64,000 nucleotides of DNA from Thermoplasmatota archaeon (GTDB lineage Archaea > Thermoplasmatota > Penumbrarchaeia > Penumbrarchaeales > Penumbrarchaeaceae). Of the stretch, positions 32,224 through 57,406 are shown piece by piece. The notes under the pieces are model-generated. The model was given only the letters and a program-made list of their open reading frames with translations, made no database searches and had not been told where the DNA came from. Both the position numbers and the translations under genes were made by a program. Positions within the stretch are counted from its first letter, which is position 1, and every line of letters starts with the position of its first letter. Location of the stretch: NCBI GenBank assembly GCA_965234725.1, contig CBDDUX010000026.1, forward strand, positions 26,371 through 90,370, read 5' to 3'.

Positions 32224-34335
32224 ATGACTATGATCAACCAGGGAACCCTGGGCCCAACACCTCAGGCACGCCGAGCTTTCGTGGCATTGGGTTTATGCCT
32301 GGTATTCTTCCTTTCGGTCCTTTTACCAACCGGAAATGTGATGGGAATGGGATCCCGTGCTCTGGTAACCTACATCGGATCGATCGAAGGGGACGGAGAT
32401 GATGGAGAGACGGTCCTTGCAGGTTATCGATGGTATACCTGTAATTTCACATTCATAGACTGGATCGAGGGAATTGACTCTTCCCTGGTCACAATTGAGA
32501 GGGGAGAGGGAGAGGATGAGGAGCTTTTCCATTTCGATCCGGAGGGATCCAATCTTACATTTTTGGAGACCTCAAAGACTATCGATGTAAAGGACCCGAT
32601 GATCGTACTTCAGAACGGTAGGAACCTAACCCTCACCTTCAAGATCTGGATCCACTTGAACTGGACATTTCAGACACAGGTGACATTGAAACCGCGCATA
32701 TGGAGCAATGGTTCTGAGGTCGGCCTCGATTCACCCCAGTTACTGAGGTTTGATATCTATGGATATCTTCAGCCTGTCAGAGACCTGATAAGGGTGGTAG
32801 ACCACTTAGGAAATGATATCCGGACAGGAGAAGCGGTCCTTTCAAACTCCACCATATCATTAACCGGACTCAATTTCGAATATGATGATAACTCAGAGAG
32901 ATTCTCCGGGCTCAGGCCGGACCCTGAAAGGGTCCATCCGCAAGTGGAATATGGGACCATGTCCACGAACGCTACCTTCATGACAAACGGATTTCAGGCA
33001 GAGATCATGGTTCCGGACCTTGAAAGCGGAAACCTGATGCTATCCATAGACATTCCGGGTGTGAGGAGTGAATGGAAACTCGCCCTCTCGGCATGGTCCT
33101 TCTCTCTTGACATCGACGGGATAGGACCGAAGATAGAGATCACCAAACCAGCCCCTGGAAAGACACAATCCGATAAGGAATTCGTATGGAACATCACGGT
33201 GACCGACCGACCCGTTACAGCTGGTGTTTATGTAAACGGTTCAACTGTCAGATATCGGGTCTGGACCATAGAATCGAACTGGTCACAGTGGTACGATATT
33301 CCTTCCTCAACTGATGCAAGGTCCATCTTCTTTTCCGGTTCTGCTACAGGTATTCCAGGGACCGGGACCACAATGATCCAATTTATGGCCGAGGATGTTC
33401 TTGGCAATGTCAATATCACAGAACCATACCCTGTGAAGATAAACAAGGCCCCTTCCCTGAACATCTCAGAGGTCATAATAGGCCTGGAATTGCCCAATAA
33501 TAGTTCATTGGAGTTAGACGGATCGGACTATGTCAGCGATCCGGACGGGGATGCCATATTCTACAAATGGTATCTTGATGATTCCGAACCACTCTCCACC
33601 CTTGCAAATTTCAGAAAACCCCTATTTGATGTGGAACCCGGTGTCCATACCATCAAACTGGAGATAAGTGATGGCCACGAAGAGGTCTCACAGTCCTTTA
33701 CATTCAATGTCACCAAGGCTAAGGACCGAGATGAGGGAAAAACCTGGTTCGAGGAGTTGATGGAAGATGAGAACCTTTTCTGGTATCTTCTTCCCATCGC
33801 CCTTATTGCTATATTGATACCTCTCATCGTACTCATCCTTTTCATATCAAGGAAGGCCAGGGAAAGGAGGGGGGACGATTTCATCATCGATGAGGATAGG
33901 GCCATGGACATGTCCCAGGCAGAGGAGACGGCAAAGCGGATATTGGATAATATGACCGCCAGGGAATCCGTTGATTTTCAGACATCCTCCTATGCTGTTA
34001 CCATAGATGAGGGATTCGATTTCGATTATGATCTCTATGAGGTCCTTGGCCTTGAATCGAACGCAACTGAAACTGAGATCAAGAAGAAATACCGCAAATT
34101 GGCGGCATTCTATCATCCCGACATGGTCGCACAGCACGGGGAGGTGTCCGGGGAGGATTCCGCCGAGGAGATGATGAGGATAAACAAGGCAAAGGAGGTC
34201 CTTCTTAATCCAGAAAGGAGGGTTATCTATGACTCCTACATCAATGACTTGGATTTCTCCATGGATATCGGGGACATGGGGGACATGGGGGATATGGGGG
34301 ATGACGATCCCGACTTCGATGATGAATGGACTTGA
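32224..34335 (+). CDS. Type-I membrane protein with large extracytoplasmic domain and cytoplasmic C-terminal J (DnaJ) domain
   Basis: N-terminal signal/TM, TM LLPIALIAILIPLIVLILFI at approx aa 515-535, J domain DLYEVLGLESNATETEIKKKYRKLAAFYHPDM...AEEMMRINKAKEVLLNPERRVIYD with HPD; (MGD)n acidic tail. Confidence 0.7.
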   Translation: MTMINQGTLGPTPQARRAFVALGLCLVFFLSVLLPTGNVMGMGSRALVTYIGSIEGDGDDGETVLAGYRWYTCNFTFIDWIEGIDSSLVTIERGEGEDEELFHFDPEGSNLTFLETSKTIDVKDPMIVLQNGRNLTLTFKIWIHLNWTFQTQVTLKPRIWSNGSEVGLDSPQLLRFDIYGYLQPVRDLIRVVDHLGNDIRTGEAVLSNSTISLTGLNFEYDDNSERFSGLRPDPERVHPQVEYGTMSTNATFMTNGFQAEIMVPDLESGNLMLSIDIPGVRSEWKLALSAWSFSLDIDGIGPKIEITKPAPGKTQSDKEFVWNITVTDRPVTAGVYVNGSTVRYRVWTIESNWSQWYDIPSSTDARSIFFSGSATGIPGTGTTMIQFMAEDVLGNVNITEPYPVKINKAPSLNISEVIIGLELPNNSSLELDGSDYVSDPDGDAIFYKWYLDDSEPLSTLANFRKPLFDVEPGVHTIKLEISDGHEEVSQSFTFNVTKAKDRDEGKTWFEELMEDENLFWYLLPIALIAILIPLIVLILFISRKARERRGDDFIIDEDRAMDMSQAEETAKRILDNMTARESVDFQTSSYAVTIDEGFDFDYDLYEVLGLESNATETEIKKKYRKLAAFYHPDMVAQHGEVSGEDSAEEMMRINKAKEVLLNPERRVIYDSYINDLDFSMDIGDMGDMGDMGDDDPDFDDEWT
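34270..34300 (+). repeat. 9-nt tandem repeat (GGGGAYATG)x3+ encoding (MGD)n at the C-terminus of the J-domain protein
   Basis: ggggacatg ggggacatg ggggatatg ggggatg read directly. Confidence 0.7.
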
Positions 34336-34365: not shown

Positions 34366-34378
34366 CTTTATATAAAAG
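34366..34378 (+). promoter_or_regulatory. TATA-box-like element upstream of giant pilin-like gene
   Basis: ctttatataaaag about 35-45 nt upstream of TTG start; AAGGAG RBS at 34398-34403. Confidence 0.35.
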
Positions 34379-34411
34379 ATCGGAACCTAAACAGTTCAAG
34401 GAGTTGATGAT

Positions 34412-37400
34412 TTGAAGAGATTATCGTCCGTTTGGAAGAACAACGGATCGAAGGATAGGTTTTTAGCGGTATCCGAAGCCGTTGGAACGGTCCTCCTTCT
34501 TGGCATATCCATCACGCTAGCAGGCGGTATTGCGGTATGGACCTCCAATATTGAAGAAGGTGAAGAAGGTATCTATGTCGATCTTTGGGCAAATGTTCAG
34601 GGAAACGACCTGGTTATTGTCCACAGAGGTGGGGATCACCTTGACGGAGTGAATACAAAGATAATGATCACAGATTCATCGAGATACAGTGTTATAGAAA
34701 ATACTTACACTGTCATGTCAGGAACGAACGATGATACCTGGTCTCCTGGAGAGGAGTTGGTTATCGATATAACAAATCCTTCTGTTACAGATACGTTCAA
34801 AATAATAGTTACAACCACCAGAGATAATGGTGAAGCTGTTGTTATTTTCAACAATGAATTGCAGAGGTCTAATTCCAATACCGGTCTCCCTGACCTTGCG
34901 ATCACAATGATAAATCTGAGAGACTCAGAAGATAATATCGTAACCACTATTCTGGACAATGGAGCATACGTCATCCAGATAAGGGTTTCGAATTTCGGAT
35001 CTGATATGACGACCGTCCATCATTCGGATCTTGGAAATGGTGCTATATCAAATCTCAAGATATTTGACTCGAATGAACCCATAGATATGGCCTCGGTCAC
35101 TTACAGTCATTATACAACCGGAGATGTAGAGGTCTTTGGTCCTGACGACCTGGGGAAAATGAAGAATGGAGATTACATGGTATTTGATTTCATTTGGCAG
35201 GTCTCCGGCAGCATTCCAAGATCACTTGGTCTCCATAGATTCAATGTGAAGGTCATTCCTGTTTATACTGGAGAGCTGAATTACAGGAACAATTACATCG
35301 AGAAGAAATTCAATGTTGATAAGGAACTGACACCTCTCGATATCCATGGTCCGGACCCAGGTATCTACGATATTCTTTTCTCGAACGAAGCTCCAAACAG
35401 TGGTGAGGAGGTTACTGTTACAGTGATCATCCAGAATTCCGGTGATGAAGGGATCGAGATCACGCATGGAGTTAATTTGATAGTCACAACTTGGGAACCG
35501 GAAAGGTACCATGACTCTTATGATGAAAGTGAGATCCATGATTGGAAGATGGATTATGAAGGATACTATGGCATGTGGAGGAGTGAATACAGTGAGGTGA
35601 TCCCTGTAACCGAGGATGACACATTCCCTACCTGTGTCAGAACAAACATCGAACTTCTCCCCGGAGCGTATCTATTCTTCTATTTCACCCTGGAAGCAAG
35701 GGTTGACGTCCCTGGAGGTGAACAGTGGGTTTTCGCAGCGATCGATGCCTTCAATGATAATTCTCAACCCCAGGGGATCGGATATTATCCAGGAGGAGAT
35801 GATCCAGGCGACAATATGAGGCTCGGAAAGATCCAGGTCCTTCCGAGGATCCTGGTGGTCGATGATGACGGATCTCCAACAGGAACCGAGGGTGACATGA
35901 CATCAACAGTTCTTGAAGCTCTCATAGGAGCTGGTGTGACAGTGGACAAGGTTTTCACTTCCCAGGAGGTAAGCGATCATTCTGATACCAGGGATGCACC
36001 GGCTTTCTCCTACAATCAAGCGGAGATATCCGCACCTGCAATGGAAGATTATGATATTGTTATGTGGGTGACCGGATTCGAGACGGATCCTCTTACCAAT
36101 GTTCCAAACGATCCTGTGAAGGATATTGGAGGAAATATCCAGGAGATAATGAAATATCTTGATTCAAACAGATATTTCCTCTTGGTTGGCACTGATCCTT
36201 TCAACGGATTGATGTCCTACTTCAATTCAAAGTCCACAACAGATCGTATTGTGGAAGACGACCCGAGCTTGGATGCCACTGCCTTCCTCTACAAATACAT
36301 GGGGATACAGCAGGTTACAACAGATGTTAACATTTCTGCAGGTGATCCCCCAACGTTACATGGAATGGACATATTCGTGGACCTTCAATTATCATCACTT
36401 GAAGGGGACCTGATAATCACACATAAGTCCGGAGATGATATCAGTGGCACTAATACAAATATTGTGATCTACGATCAGTTTGCGACACCTGTGATATCAG
36501 GTTCATATTCAGATTTTTCAGGTACCTTTGGAGAGGATTGGTCATCAGGGACCGAAGTAAGCATCGATCTGTCAACTTTGACACTTTCCGACACCTATGA
36601 TATTGTCATCACGACCCCGAGGGACCTGGGAAGTACCATGATAGTACACAAGAACGAGTTCACAATGTCCGATGAGATCGGAGAAAATCCTTCGATAAAA
36701 TATGGTGATATTTACCCGGGAGGTATATCAAGCAGGGATGAGACAATTGAACTCCTCACCCAGACTCCAGGAAATGGATTGATGAACCTCTTTGTAATAA
36801 GGAGTAGCTATGAGGAGAATCTCTTCGAGATACCTGTGGGAACATTAACGAACTCGGATGAAGTTGTCAAGGCAGATCCAAGTTTCAATTCGATAAGGTC
36901 CTTTGGTACACCTGATGAAGACCTATTCGATGCTGCATACCGATCGGTCGTGCTTGGCTGGGACATTACCCAGATAAAGTATCTCAACGAGAAAGTCGAC
37001 CTTTTCTCTGATATACTCAAGTGGTTCGACTGGGAGGTGGAGGTTGGAAGGGACCTTGCTGTTACAAGGATGAACCTTTATATCATCTCAGAGGATGAAG
37101 AGGGAAATTGGTTCAACGATCCTGTGGACGAGGATAATGCTCCCAAGTACCTGGACACTGTTCTTATTGAAGCATATGTGAGGAACAACGGACCCAATCT
37201 GGAAAGTTCTTCAGTAATGTTCTATGTCACAGGTCCAGATGGTTTGGAGCTTCCGATAACACCGAACATTCCAGATCCCAGAGATGACCTCGAGCCCGAA
37301 TATTATGATAATCCATATGACATGAACGGTCTTTCAGGAGGGGGGGCCGAGGAAAGCGTTTTCAAATTATGGCTTGCGGTGGGAGTAGGGACATACACAT

Positions 37401-40400
37401 TCAGGGTCGTTGTTGATCCATTCCACCTTATATCTGAGATAAGTGAGGAGAATAATGATATCTCGTACTCCACATCGACAATAACATCTTTCGTAACCAA
37501 GAACAACATCCTTGTTGTCGACGATGACATGTCAACTGATAATTTCCCTGTTGGCATGGACGTTGGAACCATGGATCTGAGGAGGATCTCGTATGCTTCC
37601 CTTGGAGGAGAACCCTCACAGGTGATAGAGGATACACTTGTTTCTCTGGAATATGATTTCGATAACCATGTTGTGGAAAATGATAATGTAGGGGGTGTAT
37701 GGGATTATGCAAGTGGACTTTCCATTCTTGATCTCAAGAGATACAACTCGATAGTATGGGTCCTTGGAGATTCAGGGTTAAAAGATGCAACAAACAGGGA
37801 AACTCTCACCGACAAGGACATGGAAGCCATCAAGAGGTATCTGGACGGTGATTATCAGGAGGCCAAATACCTGCCGGAAGACCATCATGAAAACCTTATG
37901 TTGATAGGGACGAACCTTACCCATGACCTTAGTGTTTCAAATGATGAGATAACCATGCTCTCAGGGAATTATTTCCTATTTGACCTGATGGAGGAATATT
38001 TCGGCATACTTCCGAATGTTCCGGCTACTAATATCGGAACCACTCTTGTGGGGCCAACAGAAGGAGAGATCCTTGATGAGGTATATCATGGAATTGATTT
38101 CGAGTTTGGAGAGCTTGACTCAGTATATGAATATTCAACTCTGGATCTGGCACCTCCAATGGATACCTATGCAGAGGTTACACCTGGTCTTTGGGCCGGG
38201 GCAGATCTCATATCCGCACAGTACAAATATGACAATATCGAATCTGCAATGGCGATCCAGAGGAACTTCCAGGTCATAGTGCATACATGGCAACTGACAA
38301 GGGCCTCTGTGCTTGCTAGAGAGAGCCCCCTCAGAGAATTGGTGTATCTACCGCTTCACTGGTTCGATACGCCTGAGGACGATCCGGAGCTTCTCGGTAG
38401 GTCCTCAGATATATTTCTTGATAACACGAATCCTGTGATCGGAAATTCATATGTGATCCAGGTTGAGGTTGCAAATCTTGGAGGAGCTGCAGGCGGTGGT
38501 ACAATCGGATTCATGGATGGGGCATCGCTTATCCAGTCCGAGAACCTCTATCTGAATGCAGATACCACAACAACCGTTGAAGCTATCTGGAAACCACTCT
38601 ATGCTGGTGAAAGGACCTTGACCATATGGTTGGATCGTTACAACGATACTTCCGAGGTCTTCGATATTCAGAACAATGCACCATCAATTACCATCGATGT
38701 GTTCTTCTTCTGGGACGATATGGAAGCCGGAGATGACAACTGGGACCATGATTCGACCATCCTGAGGATAAACGGTGAAGGAACACTTGATTATATGAGT
38801 GAACCAACCTCTACGAACATCGAGAACAAGTGGCTGGCAATGAATGGTTTCAATGTGAATACCGATGTTGAGAATACAGTTGTTCAAGGTGAGTACTACA
38901 GCTCTCCCAATTCATTTTACATGTATGAACCCAGCCTTTCCGGTACCTCGAGAAAGGATATGGATCTTGTAATGATGCTCGACACATCAGAATCAATGGA
39001 TGATGGTGGTTGGGATCTAGCAATTGAAGATTATCAACCAATTGGGAATATGAAATTGGCGGCAAAGAATATTATAGATCAGTTGACACCAACAGATCGA
39101 ATTGCAATCTATTCTTTCAATGGACTTGGTGCTCCAGTCCAGAGGTTTTCATTCACATATATGACACAGACCAATCGTGAGAATGCAAAGGATGAGATAG
39201 ACTCCTTGACAGCAAGTGGGGACACTCCTCTTTGGGACGGGATAGGTGAGGTTATCAACTATGTTTTAACCAATCAGAGGACGTCGAATGTTTATACATC
39301 GATAATTTCTTTGACAGATGGGGATGACTTTGGAAAATTTGAAAGAGAGGATGGAAGCACTGTTTATTGCCCAGGTTCTGAAAGATCTACATATTACGGA
39401 TCTCATACTTGGGGAAATGCCCTTGGTTTGAAATGGGGAGATTCCAGTATTGACTTCAGAAATCAGGGATCGGCCAATGGAGATGATATTCTCAGGGTTG
39501 GTGGGGAAGGAGGAGTACCTTTGACCGGGTCATGGCTTGATCTTCAAGATTCAACAAGGACCGGACTATTGTATTCACCTATCCCTGTATTTACTGTTGG
39601 ATTGGGGATATCCCCTCATGAAGCTGATCCACTGAATCCAACAATTGGTACGAATTATTTCTTTACTACAGAATATGACCTTTGGCGTGTTGCTGAGACT
39701 TCCAAGGGGGAATATTATTATGCATCTGATTCCACGATCCTTGGAAAGATATTCCAGGAGATATTCAATCAAGTGGAACAGAATGCGCAATCATCTACTC
39801 GTGGTGAACCTTCAAGAGCCGCAGGACTCTGGACAGATGGGAATGAGGTTGCCAGCAACAAATACATGCACACCAGTATAGTTGACCTGAAATATGCGGA
39901 TACGGCAATACTTTCATTCAACCATAAATACAACATGAAGGTCGGTTCCAACGGCGGAGTGATCCTTATTGGAACAGATACAGACGGTGATGGGTCCTGG
40001 GATTTCGAATATGTTCAGCCAGATCAGGCTTATACCGGAAATTTCCTCACTTCACAATGGGACAATCTAAAAGACAGTTATGGAAACAGGATGCGTTGGT
40101 GCTGGAACGGACTTTCCGGTGGAGGAAGCCTCGGATGGGATCATGTGACCGTCGATCTTGAAGAATTCCTAGGTGAAGAGGTGATCGTCGCATTCATCTA
40201 TTACTATCTAGGGGGAGGAACAGGATACGGTTGGATGATAGACGATGTTGACATCAAGATATCCACATTTGATACCAATCTGGACAAGGGTTTATCCGTT
40301 GACAGCTGGACCCTTCAAAATGTGACCGATGTTGGGTCTACCAGGGGAGTTGGATCATACAGTGGATATAATTCCTGGTTCATAGGCGATCCCAACAATG

Positions 40401-41146
40401 GTGGGGATCTCAAACCTGGAGTTGATAACTCACTGTATACCAGGCAGATAGACCTCACCAACACCAGGGAAGCTACTCTTGAGGCGCAGCTCAGGTTCAA
40501 TATCGACACAGATCCCGGCAGACCTCCGGATGGTTTCCGGGTGGAAGTGTCTATAGATAACAAACAGACATGGGTTCCTCTGAATCTTGGTGTACGATCA
40601 TCCTGGGGAGTTTCAGGGACCGAAGCCGATGCTGATGACGGGATCCCGGATGATCAGAAATCCTATACGGGTCTTGACCTCGAGGGGAACGGAAATAACT
40701 GGGTTCCGGCAAATACATTGACAAGGTTGAGTACCAATCTGGATTCCTTCACCGGGAATGTTATAAACATTAGGTTCCGGGTGATAACGAACACAGACCT
40801 CACTCATTATGCAGATCCTAACGAGGACCTTGGTATCTATATCGATGATGTCTTCGTCTATGGTTCGTCGCTTCACGCAACGAGATCTGAAATTGGATCG
40901 ACAGAAGAGATCTTATCCGAAGTTGATGAAATTGTAGAACCTGTTGATGTAACGATACCCATGGAAAGTGAATGGGAAGAAGAACCTATGATCGAAACTG
41001 TAGAGGCCATTCACGAAGACAGTGAGATCGGATCTGAAGATAGAGGGATCGGATCCTATCTCATATGGGTAATTGTTCCCTTCCTTCTGATATTGATGGC
41101 GGTACCAGTTGTATTTGTTCAGGTAGGTAGAGTGAAGAGGGATTGA
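34412..41146 (+). CDS. Giant (2244 aa) pilin-like adhesin: class-III (archaeal type IV pilin, PF07790-like) N-terminus, CARDB-like repeats, vWA/MIDAS domain, C-terminal TM anchor
   Basis: N-term KDRFLAVSEAVGTVLLLGISITLAGGIAVW; repeated PDPGIYDI...GEEVTVTV CARDB-like modules; MIDAS DTSESM; C-terminal helix YLIWVIVPFLLILMAVPVVFV. TTG start with AAGGAG RBS. Confidence 0.65.
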   Translation: MKRLSSVWKNNGSKDRFLAVSEAVGTVLLLGISITLAGGIAVWTSNIEEGEEGIYVDLWANVQGNDLVIVHRGGDHLDGVNTKIMITDSSRYSVIENTYTVMSGTNDDTWSPGEELVIDITNPSVTDTFKIIVTTTRDNGEAVVIFNNELQRSNSNTGLPDLAITMINLRDSEDNIVTTILDNGAYVIQIRVSNFGSDMTTVHHSDLGNGAISNLKIFDSNEPIDMASVTYSHYTTGDVEVFGPDDLGKMKNGDYMVFDFIWQVSGSIPRSLGLHRFNVKVIPVYTGELNYRNNYIEKKFNVDKELTPLDIHGPDPGIYDILFSNEAPNSGEEVTVTVIIQNSGDEGIEITHGVNLIVTTWEPERYHDSYDESEIHDWKMDYEGYYGMWRSEYSEVIPVTEDDTFPTCVRTNIELLPGAYLFFYFTLEARVDVPGGEQWVFAAIDAFNDNSQPQGIGYYPGGDDPGDNMRLGKIQVLPRILVVDDDGSPTGTEGDMTSTVLEALIGAGVTVDKVFTSQEVSDHSDTRDAPAFSYNQAEISAPAMEDYDIVMWVTGFETDPLTNVPNDPVKDIGGNIQEIMKYLDSNRYFLLVGTDPFNGLMSYFNSKSTTDRIVEDDPSLDATAFLYKYMGIQQVTTDVNISAGDPPTLHGMDIFVDLQLSSLEGDLIITHKSGDDISGTNTNIVIYDQFATPVISGSYSDFSGTFGEDWSSGTEVSIDLSTLTLSDTYDIVITTPRDLGSTMIVHKNEFTMSDEIGENPSIKYGDIYPGGISSRDETIELLTQTPGNGLMNLFVIRSSYEENLFEIPVGTLTNSDEVVKADPSFNSIRSFGTPDEDLFDAAYRSVVLGWDITQIKYLNEKVDLFSDILKWFDWEVEVGRDLAVTRMNLYIISEDEEGNWFNDPVDEDNAPKYLDTVLIEAYVRNNGPNLESSSVMFYVTGPDGLELPITPNIPDPRDDLEPEYYDNPYDMNGLSGGGAEESVFKLWLAVGVGTYTFRVVVDPFHLISEISEENNDISYSTSTITSFVTKNNILVVDDDMSTDNFPVGMDVGTMDLRRISYASLGGEPSQVIEDTLVSLEYDFDNHVVENDNVGGVWDYASGLSILDLKRYNSIVWVLGDSGLKDATNRETLTDKDMEAIKRYLDGDYQEAKYLPEDHHENLMLIGTNLTHDLSVSNDEITMLSGNYFLFDLMEEYFGILPNVPATNIGTTLVGPTEGEILDEVYHGIDFEFGELDSVYEYSTLDLAPPMDTYAEVTPGLWAGADLISAQYKYDNIESAMAIQRNFQVIVHTWQLTRASVLARESPLRELVYLPLHWFDTPEDDPELLGRSSDIFLDNTNPVIGNSYVIQVEVANLGGAAGGGTIGFMDGASLIQSENLYLNADTTTTVEAIWKPLYAGERTLTIWLDRYNDTSEVFDIQNNAPSITIDVFFFWDDMEAGDDNWDHDSTILRINGEGTLDYMSEPTSTNIENKWLAMNGFNVNTDVENTVVQGEYYSSPNSFYMYEPSLSGTSRKDMDLVMMLDTSESMDDGGWDLAIEDYQPIGNMKLAAKNIIDQLTPTDRIAIYSFNGLGAPVQRFSFTYMTQTNRENAKDEIDSLTASGDTPLWDGIGEVINYVLTNQRTSNVYTSIISLTDGDDFGKFEREDGSTVYCPGSERSTYYGSHTWGNALGLKWGDSSIDFRNQGSANGDDILRVGGEGGVPLTGSWLDLQDSTRTGLLYSPIPVFTVGLGISPHEADPLNPTIGTNYFFTTEYDLWRVAETSKGEYYYASDSTILGKIFQEIFNQVEQNAQSSTRGEPSRAAGLWTDGNEVASNKYMHTSIVDLKYADTAILSFNHKYNMKVGSNGGVILIGTDTDGDGSWDFEYVQPDQAYTGNFLTSQWDNLKDSYGNRMRWCWNGLSGGGSLGWDHVTVDLEEFLGEEVIVAFIYYYLGGGTGYGWMIDDVDIKISTFDTNLDKGLSVDSWTLQNVTDVGSTRGVGSYSGYNSWFIGDPNNGGDLKPGVDNSLYTRQIDLTNTREATLEAQLRFNIDTDPGRPPDGFRVEVSIDNKQTWVPLNLGVRSSWGVSGTEADADDGIPDDQKSYTGLDLEGNGNNWVPANTLTRLSTNLDSFTGNVINIRFRVITNTDLTHYADPNEDLGIYIDDVFVYGSSLHATRSEIGSTEEILSEVDEIVEPVDVTIPMESEWEEEPMIETVEAIHEDSEIGSEDRGIGSYLIWVIVPFLLILMAVPVVFVQVGRVKRD

Positions 41147-41158
41147 GGAGGTGAACCC

Positions 41159-44100
41159 TTGAATAGGAATTATCCAAAAATCATGAAAAAGAAAGGGAAA
41201 AGCGATCTCCTGGGTGTTTCGGAAGCCATAGGCACGGTTCTCCTTCTCGGGATCACGGTTGCCATGACCGGTGGGATCGCATTGTACACCTCTCAGATAG
41301 ATGGTATGGATGAAGGTCTTTTCGTGGACCTCTATGCATCCCTATCAGGTGAAACACTCTCAATAACACATCGCGGTGGCGATGTTCTTACCGGGACAGA
41401 AACATACATAACAATACAGAATTCTGACGGGACTGAATTTCGGAGCATAAAGTATTTTGATCCAGGACAGGGAAGGAGTGATGAATTCTGGGAATCAGGT
41501 GAATCACTTGATATTTCTCTTGTAGGAACCACGCTCGATATCACGATCTTAGTTACAACTGTTCGAAATGATGGTATTAGCATTGTAGCAATGAAGACCG
41601 AGCTTTCCAAATCATCCCTTGATCCCAACAGTCCTGACCTTGCAATAACTCGGATCTCCATCCAGCAGTCTGGAACAACAGGTATCGATGGCTATATTCT
41701 GGATCACGGTCCATTTCTGATAATTGTCAATGTGAAGAACATTGGTGGATCCATGACAGAGAAATGGGTGGAACCATTGAGCGATTCGGAAGTCTCGAAT
41801 CTGATGATATATGATGATAGTGATTCGCTTGAATTGTCTTCACTCAGTTACACTCACAGGGATAGTTCAGGAAACGTGAAATCACCTTCAGACATGATAT
41901 TGTTGAATGATGAATATCTTGAGATAGTATTCACATGGAACAGAGAGAAGGGTGATTACAGAGCTCTAGGTGACCATGTATTGACAGTCAAGGTCAATCC
42001 ATACAGTTCAAGTGAACTGGATTATCGCAACAACATCATGACAAGGTCCTACACGGTTGACAAGGATACAACACCTGAACCTATTCCGGGACCTGACCCG
42101 GGTATCTATGATATCTATTTCTCGGATGATGCTCCAAGAAGCGGAGATACCATAACTGTTACAGTTGTAGTTCAGAATTCTGGTTCGGAAATATTAACTC
42201 CTGATATGAACGTCCATCTGATAGTTTCCCTGTGGGCACCTGCACAGAAAAGGATCCCGATGGTCGGTTACGAGGAGGAGGTAACTGTCTATGATTGGAT
42301 GATGGATGATCCGGCCCATTATCAATCATGGAGAATGGGTAATGATACCCTGGCTGTGGAGACAGACCTTATCTTCCCAACCTGCACGATAAATGATATT
42401 GAACTTCTCCCCGGAGCATATATTTTCTTCCATTTCTCACTCGAAGCGAGAGTGGATATTCCGGGAGGTCATCAGACAGTCTATGCTGTCGTCAATCCAT
42501 ACGATGGTTATGATCCAGTGGACCCTATGGGTCTGATGTATGACGAGGGAGATAATCATAAGGATAATACCGGACTCGGTATCTTCCAGGTATTCCCAAA
42601 GATCCTGCTTGTTGATGACGATGGTGCATCCTCGGGGACCGCGGGTGACATGACGACAATAGTAACAGAAGCGCTCACAGGTTCCGGTGTCAAGACGGAT
42701 GCTATAGTTGTAGCACAGCAGGTGGAGGACGATCTCGGTATGAGGAATGCACCTGCCTATCAATATGACCGGACCAATGTACCGTTCCCGGCCATGGAGG
42801 ATTATGATATAGTAATTTGGATAACCGGTCAAAGAACGGATGCACTGACCAATGATCCAATTGCTGCATATGGAGGCAACATTCAGGAATTGATGAAGTA
42901 TCTCGATGATAATGGATATTTCCTCCTCGTCGGATCACATCCACTTGATGGATTGACACATTATTTCAACGGTGCAAATAACACTCTGATGCCGGGGACA
43001 GGATGGTCAGGTAACCCTGAATATGAAGATGCACAGAACTTCATCTACAATTATCTCGGCATACAGAGAGTCTACTCTGGTGAGGACCTGCCTCTTGGAA
43101 ACGATGATAGAATGGTTGGAATTGATGGAGACGAGGGAAACATCACAGAGGTCGATGGAGGAGGAGAATACAACATTGAATTCAATGATATGGCAGAGTT
43201 CAACGCCATGTCGACCCTCTTCCTTCCAAGAAGTGTTCAGACAGAGAAGGACCTTCAACCGTATTTCGAGATCCCTGCAGGCGTTCTTACGTATCAGGAT
43301 GAGATCTCAGGCGGGACCGAGACCGATCATGTCAATACTGTCAGGTCATGGTCTGTCCCGGATCCTGTGACCGGAGCAATATACAAATCAGTGGTCATGG
43401 GGTGGGATGTCAGAGAGATCAAGTATCTCAACCAGGAGATCGATATCTTTGCACGAACCATGAAATGGCTTGACTGGGAGATCCAGATAGGAAGGGATCT
43501 TGCAATAACCAAGATGGAGCTCAGTCTGCTTTCCCAGGATGAGAACAATGACTGGATCAAGGTGCCTATAGATAACGATGAGGTCGTTCCAAAATATCTC
43601 GATACCATCGAGATAGAGGTGTCGGTTCGTAACAATGGACTCCTGGAGGAATCCACTACACTGATATTCTACGTCACCGGACCCAATGGAATTGAGGTTC
43701 CGGTCACGACTGATCTTCCAGAACCAAGATCGGAGGAATTCATTCCCGAAGAGAAAATAAATGATAACAACCCGATAGATCTTGCATACATTTCAGGAGG
43801 TGGCGGAGAGGTGACAAGGTACAAATTATGGCTCGCTCTGGGTTCGGGAATTTACAATTTCAGGGTCATGGTTGACCCATATCACCTCATTGATGAGGTT
43901 AACGAGGATAACAACGACATCAGCTATTCAACAACAACACTTGCATCTTTTGTTGCAGAGAACAATATTCTGATAGTGGATGATGATGGTTCATCCGATA
44001 ACTTCCTGGCCGAAGATCTTCCATTGGCTACGTGGAACGGACTTGTTATCAATTATCCATTGGGAGAACCTTCAGAGCTTATTGCCGATTCACTTGTTGA

Positions 44101-47100
44101 ACTCGATTTCGACCATGAAGTGTTCACCACCGAGAACTATCATGATTCCTCGGATTGGATAATGGGAAGCGGACCCCTGGTGGAGGAATTGAAGAGGTTC
44201 AATTCGATCATATGGGTCAGTGGGAATTCTGGAAGTGTGGTTTCTCTTGATAGAGAAACGCTGACAGATTCCGATATCATTGCCATTGAGAAATATCTCA
44301 GCGGATTATATGACGAGGCACAGTTCCTGGGTGATGATCACAATGAGAACCTGATGTTGACAGGAAGTCATGTCCTAGAGGATATTTCAGGGTCCGGTGA
44401 CCATTCAATTTCGGGGGTCGGGATAGAGACATCCACCCATGAATTCCTCAGGAATTTCCTGGGAGTGCATCCTGAAACAACATCACCTCCACAGGAAACC
44501 GGAAGTATCATTTTCGGTGCAAGGTCGGGAAGTATGCTCTCGGATATCTATTTTGGATTGGAAATATTCGATGAAGATATCGAAGGAGGAGACTTCAACT
44601 ATCAGGATCTCACAACGTTCAACAGACCATTCTCAACTGTCAGAAACGCTTTCATGACATTTGACGGAACTATGAACATTGATACAGCTTCGGTCCAGTT
44701 CTCTCATCATGATGATGAGGCTGGTGATTATTTCAGATCTGTATTCCATTCATGGGACCTTGCAGAGTTGCAAAAATCGGGTGATGGTTCCATTGAACAT
44801 CCTTTCCAGGAATCGATATTTCTCACTCTCAGATGGTTCGATACACCGATCATTCAACCTGAGATACTATCGAGGAACATCATGGTGGATATCAATCATG
44901 ATAATCCCTCACTTGGGAATTCCTATCTTGTTTCTTTAAAAGTTGCAAACCTCGGAGGAGCATCCGGAGGTGGGACCGTAAGGTTCATGGATGGAGATAC
45001 ACTTTTTTCGACCAGGTTCATTTTCCTCGATCCGGGAGATCAGGTCACAATTGAAGCCATATGGGAACCACAATATGCAGGTAACAGGATAATCAAGGTC
45101 TGGCTTGATCGGTTCGATGATTATGATGAGGTTTTCGATTCGATCAATAACATACCTCAAAGATCGATCACTGTATACTATTTCTGGGACGACATGGAGA
45201 CATATGGTTCCAACAATTTTGAACATGATGCATTAGTTGCGATGATCAACGGTGAGAATCCTCTTGATTACTACGATCCATTGGACCCTGACCCTCAGAC
45301 CAATGTTATTGACTCATGGGACAGATCAATGTCATACGGGGTCAGAGAAGCGGACGACACTTCCAAGAGCGCCCCTTATTCCTATAGATTGGAGGAATCC
45401 AAAGGAGCAGTGCTAAATAGAGCTGACGTGATAATCAGCTTTGTCATAGATGATTCAGCGTCGATGACCAAAAGGACATCAACTGCTGGAAACACATGGC
45501 TTCAAGAGGCGAAGGATGCAGCACAGATACTTCTAAATGAACTTTCCGATGCATCAATTTGTGTTAGTATCTGGGATTTCAAGGGTAACGCTGAGAGAAG
45601 ATGGTCTGGCCCGACAGATAGAGGAACATCTGAAGGTGGTATTTCTACAACAAACAGAAGAGATCCTGTTAGACTTGGAGATGATTTCGGGGGTATTGAT
45701 GGACGTACTCTGGTAAGCAATGAAATAGATAGCATGTCAAATCCATCCGGAACCACGATCATTTGGGATTCCATAGGTGAAGCCTACAAGGATATCGAAT
45801 ACTGGTCAGTTTACTATCCGGATCTGACCCCGGTTGTTGTCGTATTATCAGATGGAATGGATATTCAGGCTTCAGATGGTTCATCATTGAGCCTGTTGAC
45901 AGTGGACAATACTGTGGAAGGTGGAAGCACATACTGGGCACCATGGGGTTCGATGGCAGATGGTGAACAATATTATCAGTATCATCTTGGAAAATACTCC
46001 ACGGACCTTTCAGATCTGAGTGCATCTACTTACTGGATGTATGCGATGAACCTGGGTTCCATGGACCATTACAGATATGGTCTCCTTGATTCTGATATAC
46101 CCATATATACGATAGGTCTTGGTCTGGAGCATCATGATCCGCCTTACCTTCCTGAAATTTCCACAAATCCTGTTACTACAATAGGAGACCACATCCTCGA
46201 TTACACTAATGCTCACTGTTCTGCAACGGGAACGGGTATTGGTGAATCAGGTACCCTGGAATATAATCTCTGGAGGATAGCTGATTCCTCGGATGCCAAG
46301 TATTTTTATGCTCCAACTGCAGATGAACTGGCAGATATTTTCCAGGAGCTTGGACAGTTGCTTGCAAAACCACAGGACCAGACAAGGAGTTCGGAACCTA
46401 CCAGGCAGGATGAGGTCCCCAATGAAAACAAATGGGCGGTCACAAGTGAATTTGATGTATCTGGTGCTGAAACCGCAAGCTTGAGTTTCTGGCACAAGTA
46501 CAATATCGTTGACGGTGCAAACGGTGGATACGTCATGGTTGGCTATTTGGATGATACAGTGGATACTGATGCAGATGGTGATCCTACCAACGATTGGGAT
46601 TGGAAGTACATGACCCCGGTAAATGGATTCTATTCGGGAAGCCTCTATCCTGGTCTTGAAAGGAAGGATTCTTTCGGCAATACTATAAATTGGGGTTACA
46701 ACGGTAGGAGCGGTGAAGGTACATTTGATTGGGACAATGCGGATTTCAATATCCTTGATTTTGTACCTCCTGGATACAGGGACAGGGTCAAAGTTATGTT
46801 CTACTACATACAGTATGGTGGAGGAACAGGTGATGGATGGTGGTTCGATGATGTCAAGATAGTGATGTCAAGAGCCGAAGAATCACCTGTGGATGCTGAT
46901 TCTATTGATACATGGAGGTTTCTGGAAGGAACAACAGAAAGCGGAACCGTTCACAGCGGAACCCATTCATGGTTTGCAGGGGGCATAACAACAGCATATG
47001 ATCTGCATGAGGGGATAGATAATTCACTGTATACCAGACCCATCGATCTTACAAATGCAAGAAATGCATATTTAGAATTCTACACCAGGTTCAACATCCA

Positions 47101-47710
47101 GTATGAAGCCGGAAGGCCACCAGACGGATTCAGAGTGGAGATATCTAAGAACAACGGATTGAGCTGGGCACCTCTGAACTTCGGAGTCAGATCCTCATGG
47201 AGGGTTAGCGGGACTGAAGCCGATCTGACAGATGGTGAGTTGGACGGAAAATCATTCACCGGGGCATCCGAGAGATCCGATGTCCACAACTGGGTTCCTG
47301 CATCATCAATATCAAGGCTTACTCTGGATCTGGGTGGTTATACCGGTTATGTGGTAACTTTGAGATTCAGGATTGTGACCAACATTGATGGTATCCATTA
47401 TGAGGATGTCAATTCGTTCAGAGGAGTATATCTCGATGATATCAAGGTGTTCGGTGAATCACTGGAATCATCACCTACAAGGTCTCAGAGTATGGAAAAC
47501 CCGGATATCGATGAAATGATATTGGAAAGCTTATCAAAGGGATCTGATGATGGATCGACCTCGGAAATTATTGAGGTTCCCGAACCGCAAGAATCTGTTG
47601 AAAGGGCAAAAGTACAGAACACATTATATGGACCCACTTTACTTATCTTGTTATTAATCATAATATCTATCATCTGGATGGTCGGAAGACGCTTGGGGGT
47701 TCATAGATGA
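41159..47710 (+). CDS. Giant (2183 aa) pilin-like adhesin, paralog of 34412-41146
   Basis: N-term KSDLLGVSEAIGTVLLLGITVAMTGGIALY; collinear with paralog (CARDB-like modules, ILLVDDDG blocks, MIDAS DDSASM, C-terminal TM LLILLLIIISIIWMV). Alternative ATG start at 41183. Confidence 0.65.
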   Translation: MNRNYPKIMKKKGKSDLLGVSEAIGTVLLLGITVAMTGGIALYTSQIDGMDEGLFVDLYASLSGETLSITHRGGDVLTGTETYITIQNSDGTEFRSIKYFDPGQGRSDEFWESGESLDISLVGTTLDITILVTTVRNDGISIVAMKTELSKSSLDPNSPDLAITRISIQQSGTTGIDGYILDHGPFLIIVNVKNIGGSMTEKWVEPLSDSEVSNLMIYDDSDSLELSSLSYTHRDSSGNVKSPSDMILLNDEYLEIVFTWNREKGDYRALGDHVLTVKVNPYSSSELDYRNNIMTRSYTVDKDTTPEPIPGPDPGIYDIYFSDDAPRSGDTITVTVVVQNSGSEILTPDMNVHLIVSLWAPAQKRIPMVGYEEEVTVYDWMMDDPAHYQSWRMGNDTLAVETDLIFPTCTINDIELLPGAYIFFHFSLEARVDIPGGHQTVYAVVNPYDGYDPVDPMGLMYDEGDNHKDNTGLGIFQVFPKILLVDDDGASSGTAGDMTTIVTEALTGSGVKTDAIVVAQQVEDDLGMRNAPAYQYDRTNVPFPAMEDYDIVIWITGQRTDALTNDPIAAYGGNIQELMKYLDDNGYFLLVGSHPLDGLTHYFNGANNTLMPGTGWSGNPEYEDAQNFIYNYLGIQRVYSGEDLPLGNDDRMVGIDGDEGNITEVDGGGEYNIEFNDMAEFNAMSTLFLPRSVQTEKDLQPYFEIPAGVLTYQDEISGGTETDHVNTVRSWSVPDPVTGAIYKSVVMGWDVREIKYLNQEIDIFARTMKWLDWEIQIGRDLAITKMELSLLSQDENNDWIKVPIDNDEVVPKYLDTIEIEVSVRNNGLLEESTTLIFYVTGPNGIEVPVTTDLPEPRSEEFIPEEKINDNNPIDLAYISGGGGEVTRYKLWLALGSGIYNFRVMVDPYHLIDEVNEDNNDISYSTTTLASFVAENNILIVDDDGSSDNFLAEDLPLATWNGLVINYPLGEPSELIADSLVELDFDHEVFTTENYHDSSDWIMGSGPLVEELKRFNSIIWVSGNSGSVVSLDRETLTDSDIIAIEKYLSGLYDEAQFLGDDHNENLMLTGSHVLEDISGSGDHSISGVGIETSTHEFLRNFLGVHPETTSPPQETGSIIFGARSGSMLSDIYFGLEIFDEDIEGGDFNYQDLTTFNRPFSTVRNAFMTFDGTMNIDTASVQFSHHDDEAGDYFRSVFHSWDLAELQKSGDGSIEHPFQESIFLTLRWFDTPIIQPEILSRNIMVDINHDNPSLGNSYLVSLKVANLGGASGGGTVRFMDGDTLFSTRFIFLDPGDQVTIEAIWEPQYAGNRIIKVWLDRFDDYDEVFDSINNIPQRSITVYYFWDDMETYGSNNFEHDALVAMINGENPLDYYDPLDPDPQTNVIDSWDRSMSYGVREADDTSKSAPYSYRLEESKGAVLNRADVIISFVIDDSASMTKRTSTAGNTWLQEAKDAAQILLNELSDASICVSIWDFKGNAERRWSGPTDRGTSEGGISTTNRRDPVRLGDDFGGIDGRTLVSNEIDSMSNPSGTTIIWDSIGEAYKDIEYWSVYYPDLTPVVVVLSDGMDIQASDGSSLSLLTVDNTVEGGSTYWAPWGSMADGEQYYQYHLGKYSTDLSDLSASTYWMYAMNLGSMDHYRYGLLDSDIPIYTIGLGLEHHDPPYLPEISTNPVTTIGDHILDYTNAHCSATGTGIGESGTLEYNLWRIADSSDAKYFYAPTADELADIFQELGQLLAKPQDQTRSSEPTRQDEVPNENKWAVTSEFDVSGAETASLSFWHKYNIVDGANGGYVMVGYLDDTVDTDADGDPTNDWDWKYMTPVNGFYSGSLYPGLERKDSFGNTINWGYNGRSGEGTFDWDNADFNILDFVPPGYRDRVKVMFYYIQYGGGTGDGWWFDDVKIVMSRAEESPVDADSIDTWRFLEGTTESGTVHSGTHSWFAGGITTAYDLHEGIDNSLYTRPIDLTNARNAYLEFYTRFNIQYEAGRPPDGFRVEISKNNGLSWAPLNFGVRSSWRVSGTEADLTDGELDGKSFTGASERSDVHNWVPASSISRLTLDLGGYTGYVVTLRFRIVTNIDGIHYEDVNSFRGVYLDDIKVFGESLESSPTRSQSMENPDIDEMILESLSKGSDDGSTSEIIEVPEPQESVERAKVQNTLYGPTLLILLLIIISIIWMVGRRLGVHR

Positions 47711-48570
47711 GAAAACTACTGAAAATGGATAACAACGGTGACGCTGTCATGGTTACCGCTGTACTTTTGATGTCGCTATTTCTCTCTGCAGGTTCACAGC
47801 TTCTGATATCATACGGGGAGGACCTTGGAAAAGACAATGACCGGGAGCATATGACAGATGTTGAGGAATCGATGCTAAGGCTTCGGACCTCCATGAAATC
47901 CCTTCTGAAAGCAGAGGATACCGATACGTTGATGGTTAACAGATTCACACTCGGAACTATGGGTAATCCATATTTGGCGGTTGCCCGGTCATCGGGAACT
48001 CTCACACATACAAATGATCCTTCGGATTTCCATATGGAAGTAGTGATCGAAGATGGAGGTTCGGAGGATGTCCTCAATACGGTGAGTGGTGCCCTGATCT
48101 TTGAATCAAATAATTACTACTATCATGACCAGGACCTGACAATTATTTCAGGCGGTGTTATCAAGGAACAACACGGTTTCGAGACGATGTCGTCCTATCC
48201 TGACTTATCAATATCGCATACAATCAGTGGATATTCATTGGATATGTTTCTATTCGGTATGGCAGGAGATTACTGGAAGGTTTCCGGGATAGAATCATTG
48301 ATCCTGTCGGTTTCAATGATAGGTTATTCCCAGATAGACAGGATAATGGGACCTGGAGAGGTTCTATCAGTAAGGATAAACGGCATGGGGGAGAGATCAT
48401 GGTACGAGATGATGGAAGGGACCTTCCAGACCTTCGGTCTTATCTCGGGTGTGGATTATCAGATAAACGTCCCGGTCGATTGGGACGATGCAGGTCAGGA
48501 ACTTGAAGTGGAATTTCTGACACTTGAATCACTATCAGCAAGAATTTGTGAAATGGAGGTGACATTATGA
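47707..48570 (+). CDS. Pilin-like (class-III signal) minor subunit candidate
   Basis: N-terminal charged leader then hydrophobic AVMVTAVLLMSLFLSAGSQLL; ATGA overlap with upstream and downstream genes. Confidence 0.5.
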   Translation: MRKLLKMDNNGDAVMVTAVLLMSLFLSAGSQLLISYGEDLGKDNDREHMTDVEESMLRLRTSMKSLLKAEDTDTLMVNRFTLGTMGNPYLAVARSSGTLTHTNDPSDFHMEVVIEDGGSEDVLNTVSGALIFESNNYYYHDQDLTIISGGVIKEQHGFETMSSYPDLSISHTISGYSLDMFLFGMAGDYWKVSGIESLILSVSMIGYSQIDRIMGPGEVLSVRINGMGERSWYEMMEGTFQTFGLISGVDYQINVPVDWDDAGQELEVEFLTLESLSARICEMEVTL

Positions 48571-49397
48571 AACTGACAAGGTCCAGGAACGATGAAGGTG
48601 TAACAAACGTGGTTTCATTGATAATGATAGCAGCAATAATCGTCTCCTTCATGGGAATGGTCTTCACAACATATCTACCTGCATGGGGAAAGGATATCGA
48701 GGTACAGACCCTGAACGATGTGATGGATTCCTTCATGGACCTTAAGTCTGGAATGGATACATTATCAGTTGGTGGAGATCAGGGAACCTCCATAACAACA
48801 AAGTTTGCACTCGGGTCCGAGGGTGGACCCATGTTCGGTTTCGGAAGGATGACAGGATCCATAACCCTTGACAATGAAGGGGGAGAAATGTCAGTCAGCG
48901 ACGCAACAACGACCTATGCTCAGACAAGAGGAACCCTCAGTTACAGCTCATATAATGTCTATGTGGAAGAACAGGACATCATACTCGAAGGTGGGGCCAT
49001 CTTCAGGGACCAGGCTGTATCATCTGTTGTCAAAGGCCCACCGAACTTACTTGTCGACAGGGACTCGGCAACTGGTAGCATTAAATTGTATATTCTCCTC
49101 CAGAACCTTCAAGGAACCGAGATCGGATTTGCAGGCACGGGAAGCTACATGGTGAAGACAAGCCTCCTTACAGCTGAATTCTCAGAATATTCTCTCGGCG
49201 GAGTTGATGTGACCATAGAGATCGCAACAGAACACGATGGACTATGGCAGGATATTGTAGATGATATGATGACAGAACAGGGAATACCGGGAACTGATTA
49301 TTCCACCTCGTATGCAGGAGGAGTATTCTCATTCACGATAGATAATGTTGATAATATGTCCATAAGAACGTCATTCTTCAAGATAGGAGTGACCTAG
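48567..49397 (+). CDS. Pilin-like (class-III signal, PF07790/DUF7289-like) minor subunit candidate
   Basis: N-term DEGVTNVVSLIMIAAIIVSFMGMVFTTYLPAWG, a typical archaeal pilin N-terminal domain. Confidence 0.55.
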   Translation: MKLTRSRNDEGVTNVVSLIMIAAIIVSFMGMVFTTYLPAWGKDIEVQTLNDVMDSFMDLKSGMDTLSVGGDQGTSITTKFALGSEGGPMFGFGRMTGSITLDNEGGEMSVSDATTTYAQTRGTLSYSSYNVYVEEQDIILEGGAIFRDQAVSSVVKGPPNLLVDRDSATGSIKLYILLQNLQGTEIGFAGTGSYMVKTSLLTAEFSEYSLGGVDVTIEIATEHDGLWQDIVDDMMTEQGIPGTDYSTSYAGGVFSFTIDNVDNMSIRTSFFKIGVT

Positions 49398-54336: not shown

Positions 54337-54665
54337 GGGGTTCCTTCAAGGTGATCCACGATGGCAGTAAGTTCAAAGTGAAGATAATTGAGGTCCTTCC
54401 AGGTAAAAGACTGAGTTATCAGAGGCATAGTAGAAGGGCCGAGAGGTGGACGGTAGTGTCAGGAGAGGCCAACGTTATCATTGACGGTTCGGAATCGATC
54501 CACTCCCCTGGAGATGTTGTCATGATCGGTCTTGGTCAGAAGCACCGCCTCATCAACGACCGAACCGAAGTTCTCATACTTGTCGAGGTACAGATCGGTG
54601 ATTACTTCGGAGAAGATGACATAGAAAGGTTCGAGGACGATTTTGGAAGGGTAGAACTGGGTTAA
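54309..54665 (+). CDS. Cupin-domain protein (mannose-6-phosphate isomerase type II C-terminal cupin-like)
   Basis: RPWGSFKVI...KVKIIEVLPGKRLSYQRHSRRAERWTVVSGEA cupin motifs, 118 aa. 5' end overlaps divergent gene, so true start uncertain. Confidence 0.6.
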   Translation: MEDPTEVRPWGSFKVIHDGSKFKVKIIEVLPGKRLSYQRHSRRAERWTVVSGEANVIIDGSESIHSPGDVVMIGLGQKHRLINDRTEVLILVEVQIGDYFGEDDIERFEDDFGRVELG

Positions 54666-54789
54666 AAATATAAAAGGTTAGGATATTTTCAATCCTGATA
54701 AAAAACCTCAAACACTATTTATATTGCACCGGTCGATCGAACTTCGATATCTAATATGCCGTTTGGCTACCCAGACAGAGGAAGATGAA

Positions 54790-55641: not shown

Positions 55642-55646
55642 GACTG

Positions 55647-57060: not shown

Positions 57061-57077
57061 CCCCCGGGGGTTGAACT

Positions 57078-57248: not shown

Positions 57249-57406
57249 TCACAAGAATGGATGAAATCCTCAAATTGGTCGTAGATAGAAAGGTTCAAGA
57301 GCAGTTCTATTTAGGATCATTTCAGGTTTAATACTATTAAATATTTAAATTTGGAAATGTCTTTCAATGTCAGGTTTAATATAACATGTTCAACATATTC
57401 TAATTT

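Follow-up and report, generated by a model that had tools for sequence, protein, structure and literature searches.

The DNA analysed here is a 64,000-nucleotide stretch of a Thermoplasmatota archaeon genome (contig CBDDUX010000026.1), referred to below as the window. At 34412-49397 on the forward strand it carries four intact, same-strand open reading frames (ORFs), A, B, C and D, whose products begin with pilin-like N-termini and which are considered here as a possible cell-anchored surface adhesion complex. The genes, the gene that precedes them (J) and two signals read directly from the sequence are as follows (aa, amino acids).

32224..34335 (+): J, 703-aa type I membrane protein; Pfam DnaJ, 64 bits.
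34367-34378 (+): TATA-like box TTTATATAAAA, upstream of A.
34398-34403 (+): Shine-Dalgarno sequence AAGGAG, ahead of the TTG start of A at 34412.
34412..41146 (+): A, 2244-aa giant pilin-like adhesin; an identical protein (P0001) stands in NCBI and ENA records.
41159..47710 (+): B, 2183-aa paralog of A with the same architecture minus an inserted pilin beta domain.
47707..48570 (+): C, 287-aa pilin-like partner, a DUF7289 paralog.
48567..49397 (+): D, 276-aa DUF7289 protein.

An earlier note, made from the letters of this DNA, had described four consecutive, translationally coupled genes, and direct reading bears out both the coordinates and the ATGA start/stop overlaps between B and C (47707-47710) and between C and D (48567-48570). 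The start codon of B is a TTG at 41159, preceded by GGAGGTGA. The TATA-like element would act as a promoter, and A-D would form a single operon under its control; scans for sigma-70 promoters and terminators were uninformative, the host being an archaeon, and searches for tRNAs and Rfam families gave no match in the window. Chance cannot account for ORFs of this length. An assembly artefact was ruled out, as the identical locus is found on independent contigs, the 110.9-kb metagenome contig ENA ERZ26802894 NODE_55 (cov 1482.9), to which the window belongs, and a Logan contig, and a mobile island was ruled out by even GC and strict synteny with housekeeping genes.

The two giants, A and B, proved to be collinear paralogs, as the earlier note had claimed, and are 37-43% identical. 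In Pfam, A matches Pilin_N (39.1 bits, cut-off 25.2), CARDB, VWA/VWA_2 and InhA-like_MAM, and B matches Pilin_N (26.7 bits against the same cut-off) and CARDB, with VWA_2 under its cut-off. The architecture was refined by profile-profile comparison (hhalign) of sub-alignments from 35 homologs. Both giants run from signal and helix through a Pilin_N beta domain, two CARDB-like modules, a first alpha/beta module, CARDB, a second alpha/beta module and a further CARDB-like module to a MAM-like domain with an inserted vWA domain, a second MAM-like domain, an acidic linker, a transmembrane (TM) helix and a basic tail. The segments of A and the landmarks of B are listed below (MIDAS, metal ion-dependent adhesion site; the arrow marks a putative cleavage site).

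34412..34867 (+): A aa 1-152, basic n-region, putative cleavage site A19↓V20, helix VSEAVGTVLLLGISITLAGGIAV and Pilin_N beta domain (Pfam Pilin_N aa 19-89).
34874..35827 (+): A aa 155-472, two CARDB-like beta modules, aligned by hhalign to CARDB-like module 4.
35825..37045 (+): A aa 472-878, GATase1-like module 1, which begins ILVVDDDG and is split by a second pilin beta domain.
36347..36697 (+): A aa 646-762, that second Pilin_N beta domain, lacking the helix, inside GATase1-like module 1 (hhalign).
37043..37495 (+): A aa 878-1028, CARDB (Pfam aa 915-1016, 45.8 bits).
37493..38377 (+): A aa 1028-1322, GATase1-like / ThuA-like / GIFT-like module 2 (ILVVDDD), non-catalytic.
38375..38707 (+): A aa 1322-1432, CARDB-like module 4 (hhalign, with a faint Big_3_5 match).
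38945..39796 (+): A aa 1512-1795, vWA with MIDAS residues D1524, S1526, S1528, T1605 and D1636 (Pfam VWA aa 1518-1639).
40274..40867 (+): A aa 1955-2152, second MAM-like beta-sandwich (Pfam InhA-like_MAM aa 1979-2133).
40868..41143 (+): A aa 2153-2244, acidic, ill-conserved linker, TM helix aa 2210-2238 and basic tail GRVKRD.
43952-44851 (+): B, GATase1-like module 2.
45449-45463 (+): B aa 1431-1435, MIDAS motif DDSAS, with the downstream T and D also present.
47612-47704 (+): B aa 2152-2182, C-terminal TM.

The CARDB-like modules reported in the earlier note were recovered by Pfam in both giants and by hhalign, in which module 1 of A aligns to module 4 with 88% probability and only weakly to module 3 (41%), and module 2 aligns to module 4 with 75% probability over 30 columns. 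The two pilin beta domains of A are clearly related (hhalign probability 99.5); the inserted copy is restricted to a few close homologs (two matched stretches in P0002 and P0006). Two ILVVDDD modules per giant, also noted earlier, lie at aa 480 and 1033 in A and aa 482 and 937 in B, are homologous to each other (hhalign probability 99.5) and have a class I glutamine amidotransferase-like fold of the non-catalytic ThuA-like / GIFT type. Amidotransferase catalysis was ruled out for them, as their conserved columns contain no Cys. Towards the C-terminus, where the earlier note had described a beta-sandwich region, lie two MAM-like domains, which match each other at 95% in hhalign; the first of them is interrupted by the vWA domain (aa 1432-1512 and 1795-1955 in A).

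The MIDAS of the vWA domain (DxSxS...T...D) is complete, with all five residues present in both A and B and kept in 29-34 of the 35 homologs, and the intact DxSxS claimed earlier was found at aa 1524-1528 of A and aa 1431-1435 of B. That the giants resemble adhesins is supported. Sequence searches through all chains of the Protein Data Bank gave no match to A or to the D-family profile.

The sequences around the putative cleavage sites read ...KDRFLA↓VSEAVGTVLLLG in A, ...KSDLLG↓VSEAIGTVLLLG in B, ...NNG↓DAVMVTAVLLMSLFLS in C (NNG↓DAVMVTAVLL) and ...DEG↓VTNVVSLIMIAAIIVSFMGMVFTTYLPAWGKD in D (DEG↓VTNVVSLIMI). All four proteins show a class III-type pattern, with a short basic n-region, G or A at position -1 and a hydrophobic helix immediately after, and the G/A and the helix are kept family-wide. 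In the giants the motif [G/A]↓VSEA[V/I]GT[V/I]LLLGIS is essentially invariant, and V20, S21, E22, G25, T26, L28 and L30 are invariant or nearly so in homologs down to approximately 21-35% identity. The mean pairwise identity of the helix (aa 19-46) is 73%, the highest in the giants; the n-region reaches 23% and the C-terminal TM 17%. This is the pattern that would be expected of a retained pilin alpha1 helix, unlike a Sec signal that is discarded. Such conservation speaks against an ordinary Sec signal peptide that is cleaved off, the alternative that the earlier note had set against a pilin-like signal, although the K/R that is canonical at position -2 is absent from A-D. The same note had assigned PF07790-like N-termini to all four proteins; this holds for A and B, which score above the Pilin_N cut-off, but C and D belong to a different family with analogous N-termini.

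At the other end, a hydrophobic helix followed by a basic tail terminates both A (aa 2210-2242, hydropathy 2.91) and B (aa 2152-2182), and the C-terminal TM anchor that had been proposed earlier is real. Close homologs of the A type and of the B type, where complete, all have it together with its basic tail. The charge distribution fits an arrangement of N-terminus in, ectodomain out and C-terminus in, from which both termini are predicted to be cytoplasmic, with both ends in the membrane and an extracellular loop of 2,100 residues between them. The deeper relatives lack the C-terminal TM and stop right after the second MAM-like domain. The possibility that the helix is a known C-terminal sorting signal (PGF-CTERM, PEF-CTERM, archaeosortase/exosortase type), also raised earlier, was checked and ruled out: there is no conserved motif, and an NCBIfam scan of the isolated C-termini of A, B and two of three homologs gave no match at E up to 10, the third homolog giving only a sub-threshold LPXTG_anchor match (E 0.16, 12.7 bits against a 15.9 cut-off).

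These C-termini bear directly on one alternative, in which A-D are true pilus tip or minor-pilin adhesins that are processed and loaded on a filament by machinery encoded elsewhere, the anchor being removed or the ectodomain of approximately 15 domains spanning to a short fibre. Such proteins would show the same Pilin_N homology and helix conservation, and stand-alone tip clusters are known in bacteria (PMC12075869). The deeper relatives without a C-terminal TM (P0029-P0035 and the giants of loci L005 and L025) mean that the ancestor could have been fibre-borne, and the acidic linker ahead of the TM, within a region of A that shows only 17-20% identity (aa 2153-2244), could be a place of cleavage; yet the TM and basic tail are kept wherever a close homolog is complete, the C-terminus matches no sorting-signal model and the cluster contains no small pilin gene. 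We consider a fibre tip unlikely. In the cell-anchored complex, by comparison, the C-terminal TM would tether the giants, which would make the complex an adhesin held at the cell, a pseudopilus-like stub, and not the tip of a long fibre.

The two small partners, C and D, are paralogous to each other (blastp E 8e-15). D matches DUF7289 (PF23960) with 47 bits (cut-off 27), whereas C gives only a faint match (12.8 bits, below the cut-off) and is placed in the family through D; neither has a Pilin_N match in Pfam. Their N-termini resemble those of A and B in having a basic n-region, a G and a hydrophobic helix. The D family is characterised by an invariant N-terminus, G↓V(T/S)NVVSLIMI...YLPAWGKD, and a conserved LGSxGGPxFGFGR loop, and the C orthologs in the related loci searched keep the N-terminal motif (R/K/N)G↓DAVMVT. 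An AF2 model of D (pLDDT 84) consists of a 57-residue N-terminal helix (aa 13-69) followed by a beta domain, for which no resembling solved structure was found.

A further property common to A-D emerged from counts of N-glycosylation sequons (N-x-S/T), observed against composition-preserving shuffles.

A: 5 observed, 21 expected, z about -4.
B: 3 observed, 17 expected, z about -4.
C family (16 orthologs): 0 observed, 31 expected, z -6.5.
D family: 15 observed, 90 expected, z -8.9.
J of the window: 17 observed, 4.5 expected, z about +7.

Most of the homologs closest to A and B share the depletion, 24 of 28 having z below -2; the other proteins of the window are sequon-neutral. Among the deeper giant relatives without a C-terminal TM, five of seven are enriched in sequons and two are neutral. 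Because sequons fall below the neutral expectation, A-D would come into contact with the glycosylation machinery and be selected to remain glycan-free; and the depletion, shared by all four, argues that they act together outside the cell and links them functionally. Characterized archaeal pilins and archaellins are often N-glycosylated, a difference that further counts against A-D being the tip of a conventional filament.

Genes for glycosyltransferases, sugar-nucleotide enzymes, an ABC-2 exporter and radical SAM/SPASM proteins form two large blocks flanking the cluster, 11608-20368 and 54309-63007, continuing in L106. Judged by its genes, the host appears to invest heavily in surface glycans, in contrast to the glycan-free design of A-D. 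Between glycosylation genes lies a 3.8-kb region of lower G+C (approximately 0.40; 56600-60440) containing only small ORFs of 40-102 aa, one of which (57783-57965, MRASLELPTRIRKKGDTFIAECAEMGLHEIGNTEEEARERL...) presumably resembles a HicB-type antitoxin.

The J protein has a signal/TM at its N-terminus and a sequon-rich ectodomain of approximately 480 aa; a TM spans aa 516-546, and the J domain, which is cytoplasmic and contains the HPD motif, occupies aa 603-670. Its gene lies directly 5' of a giant gene in all eight distinct loci with upstream DNA (L003, L004/L021, L005, L015 and L026-L029). The earlier note mentions neither J nor the sequon depletion. J would probably recruit Hsp70 to aid the export or assembly of the very large A and B. 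A parallel is offered by TopJ of Mycoplasma pneumoniae, a J-domain co-chaperone needed for adhesin and terminal-organelle function: in both cases a dedicated J-domain protein is tied to large surface adhesins, possibly in a wall-less cell. Unlike the cytoplasmic TopJ, however, J is a glycoprotein-like membrane protein of type I, and the NCBIfam TopJ models match its J domain only (55 bits against a cut-off of 300), so that J is not a member of that family.

Homologs of A form approximately 35 clusters among 5.8 billion proteins, and all of those with a named source are from Thermoplasmatota; likewise, the D profile, run against a single genome for each GTDB species, gave 18 loci, all in Thermoplasmatota. 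The order J-A-(B)-C-D is kept in about 20 species-level loci of Thermoplasmatota metagenome-assembled genomes, including relatives at about 30% identity, and several species have one giant only. The full syntenic block reads helicase, MBL hydrolase, FG-GAP membrane protein, two coiled-coil zinc-ribbon proteins, J, A, (B), C, D, NMD3, AdoHcy hydrolase and SAM synthetase. Since L005 and L025, at about 30% identity, retain J, two giants, C', D' and NMD3, the J-A-(B)-C-D unit is old and vertically inherited.

The membrane-anchored FG-GAP protein (24112-27009, +; 965 aa) has 12 FG-GAP_3 matches and an integrin-alpha-like beta-propeller, and lies near the giants in close relatives, not in L005. The two coiled-coil proteins (27025-29064, -, and 29106-31385, -) are long and highly charged (679 and 759 aa), one with a C-terminal double zinc ribbon and the other with an N-terminal zinc ribbon. 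Close relatives keep both in synteny with the cluster, but at only 25-40% identity, and zinc-ribbon proteins also flank a distant giant pair in L006. A probable regulator, an HFX_2341-like / Csa3-like Rossmann and winged-helix protein (20416-21270, -), adjoins the helicase gene that starts the syntenic block.

In the close clade synteny unites the vWA giants, an integrin-alpha-like protein, two coiled-coil zinc-ribbon proteins and J, and an integrin-like device for outside-in signalling or mechanosensing may be envisaged, in which tension or ligand on the hairpin-anchored giants is passed through J to Hsp70 and the coiled-coil proteins. We regard this as improbable: distant relatives keep only J, A/B, C and D together, the FG-GAP and coiled-coil genes being gone from the neighbourhood in L005, the wider synteny may reflect mere relatedness, and there is no direct evidence for signalling.

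Outside these loci the same protein families are widespread. A metagenome scan with the N-terminal motif gave 199 relatives, and the 82 read in detail range from approximately 130 to more than 2,700 aa. A DUF7289-like gene directly adjoins Pilin_N genes in 12 other metagenome loci; there, partners of approximately 500-640 aa are Pilin_N-DUF11 proteins in all eight cases scanned, with a VWA match in six of the eight, and a Pilin_N protein of approximately 150 aa is present in several such loci. Small Pilin_N, DUF7289 and a Pilin_N-DUF11-vWA protein of approximately 500 aa together make up a widespread archaeal module (loci L032-L068), whose members are sequon-neutral in total, the DUF7289-like set being mildly enriched. 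It shares its families and their adjacency with the A-D cluster, and its vWA pilin corresponds directly, at small size, to A and B. The differences are that this partner has no C-terminal TM, GATase1-like or MAM-like modules and no sequon depletion, and that the A-D cluster has no pilin of approximately 150 aa. On these sequence relationships the small module appears to be the ancestral form, and A-D a lineage-specific enlargement of it rather than a stand-alone new apparatus. The suggestion in the earlier note of an undescribed type of adhesion apparatus therefore stands in part: the cluster is one conserved unit with pilin-like N-termini and adhesin-like giants, but it is an enlarged variant of a common module.

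In an exhaustive profile search this N-terminal domain was recovered from 4,018 cluster representatives. Of the 150 best, about half are longer than 1,000 aa, and a TM helix with basic tail ends seven of the 62 other large Pilin_N proteins listed. Large size and dual anchoring are hence recurrent, and the C-terminal TM, although real in A and B, is less unusual among pilin-like proteins than had been supposed; as far as the literature was searched, neither feature has been described for Pilin_N proteins. Another dual-anchored pilin-like family, separate and of approximately 1,400 aa, comprises P0122, P0151, P0157, P0210 and P0212, which share a C-terminal ...INV.TG..DL..LLPF.G..GIV... followed by a basic tail. 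Genes for KaiC-like ATPases (PF06745) adjoin Pilin_N/DUF7289 genes in L032 (2565-4719, -, three in a row), and one adjoins giant Pilin_N genes in the unrelated L006 (7861-8571, +), which recalls the KaiC-family regulators proposed for archaeal pili (PMC4858521).

Taken as a whole, we read A-D, at a probability of roughly 45%, as a surface adhesion complex of type-IV-pilin-like subunits that arose from a minor-pilin or tip-like module, is tethered to the cell through C-terminal anchors and is assisted by J. It would consist of one or two giant modular adhesins (A, B) with two small DUF7289 pilin-like partners (C, D), and would descend from the widespread three-gene archaeal module, whose role would match that of minor-pilin 'tip' sets such as bacterial TadE/F/G. 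All four proteins would be inserted by Sec with the N-terminus in the cytoplasm and trimmed at the conserved G/A by a prepilin-type peptidase encoded elsewhere, after which their strongly conserved N-terminal helices would join in a parallel bundle. The vWA-MIDAS, MAM-like, GATase1/GIFT-like and CARDB modules of A and B would then bind ligands, and the clade-specific gain of the C-terminal TM and basic tail would keep the giants cell-tethered as extracellular loops.

Several observations weigh against this interpretation. Archaeal class III signals typically have K or R at position -2 when they are substrates of prepilin peptidases (PMC3387779), and the window proteins have L (A), L (B), N (C) and E (D) there; R/K is found in most C orthologs and in a few A/B homologs, and many other Pilin_N proteins that share the motif likewise lack it. 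As the earlier note had stated, the window (64 kb) shows no family of pilus ATPase, platform protein or prepilin peptidase in the ORFs that were scanned, of which 14-1243 and 7750-9141 gave no Pfam match. None was found in the flanks (up to 10 kb) of approximately 25 related loci, the 10 kb past the 3' end of the window hold glycosylation genes only and no pilus machinery, and a regular-expression search for a T2SSE-type Walker A motif was negative in 456 ORFs from 80 metagenome loci. Moreover, the exhaustive profile search yielded no small major-pilin gene with this N-terminal domain, the best-scoring small matches looking like fragments of large proteins, and a word-indexed search with aa 1-152 of A gave a single fragment. 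Gene content, domain architecture, conservation and signals of topology are what the sequences show; helix bundling and the part played by J, like processing and ligand binding, are inferred.

The non-canonical position -2 and the absence of pilus machinery at the locus also fit an ordinary Sec-dependent coat, in which the N-terminus is an uncleaved signal-anchor or Sec signal, the giants are a membrane-anchored substitute for an S-layer and C and D act as stalk or spacer. Archaeal S-layer and surface proteins typically carry a TM anchor at the C-terminus (PMC3387779), and Thermoplasmatales have unordered protein shells in place of S-layers (PMC12448462). A vertically inherited cluster among housekeeping genes (NMD3, AdoHcy hydrolase, SAM synthetase) in an organism whose very high coverage indicates abundance would suit such a role. 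A segment that is cleaved off or merely anchors, however, would not be the best-conserved part of so large a protein (2,200 aa), and its invariant motif would not recur across thousands of Pilin_N proteins; the vWA-MIDAS and lectin-like modules suggest ligand binding over lattice formation, and archaeal coat proteins are normally glycosylated, unlike the sequon-depleted A-D. A coat is on the unlikely side.

The adhesion complex itself may be taken further, to a filament-independent minor-pilin set in which the four helices form a permanent membrane bundle presenting one or two hairpin-anchored, glycan-free vWA adhesins of 2,100 residues, with assembly dependent on a TM J-domain protein coupled to Hsp70. 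This more specific proposal is rather unlikely.

Among known systems, several bacterial ones offer analogies to A-D. The Tad pili of Myxococcus have stand-alone Tip (Kil) gene clusters, with a large exposed pilin and subunits predicted to join through an alpha1N bundle (PMC12075869), and TadG carries a vWA domain (PMC4858521). TadE/TadF/TadG and the Kil Tip clusters resemble A-D in being few pilin-like genes, possibly away from the assembly machinery, in combining two smaller partners with a large subunit that exposes a variable or vWA region, and in their predicted alpha1 bundle. In contrast, no sequence similarity was detected, A-D carrying Pilin_N or DUF7289 and no TadE/Tad-type family in their Pfam matches, and A and B are 4-5 times bigger, duplicated and anchored by a C-terminal TM, with no filament or machinery linked to them.

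PilB of Streptococcus sanguinis is a modular type IV pilin with a pilin module and a MIDAS-bearing vWA (PMC8179133), and is similar to the giants in that a vWA with full MIDAS is grafted as an adhesion module on a class III-type N-terminus and pilin module. It is bimodular and encoded in a pilus operon, whereas A and B have approximately 15 modules over 2,200 aa, a C-terminal anchor and an archaeal host; the largest case cited in a survey restricted to bacterial IPR012902 pilins has 860 aa (PMC8179133). Haloferax PilA and the Methanococcus Epd minor pilins (Pilin_N, PF07790, formerly DUF1628) have a homologous signal, helix and first beta domain (PMC4858521, PMC3875500), but are small filament subunits, typically with K/R at -2, encoded near or assembled by PilB/PilC-type machinery. 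Compared with the characterised Pilin_N pilins, A and B are giant, dual-anchored and sequon-depleted, and have no such machinery nearby.

Archaeal adhesion is poorly understood, and neither large Pilin_N proteins nor the small archaeal module are known to have been studied experimentally, although the number of cluster representatives shows the large proteins to be very common. The locus is a clean, conserved test case for processing at V20, a four-helix bundle, metal-dependent vWA binding, dependence on J and the glycan-free state of A-D. It would link archaeal Pilin_N-vWA/DUF7289 modules to the bacterial TadE/F/G tip complexes and so bear on the relationship between Tad and archaeal pili. 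If the filament-independent bundle is correct, A-D would represent a new class of archaeal surface organelle, derived from type IV filaments but standing outside them.

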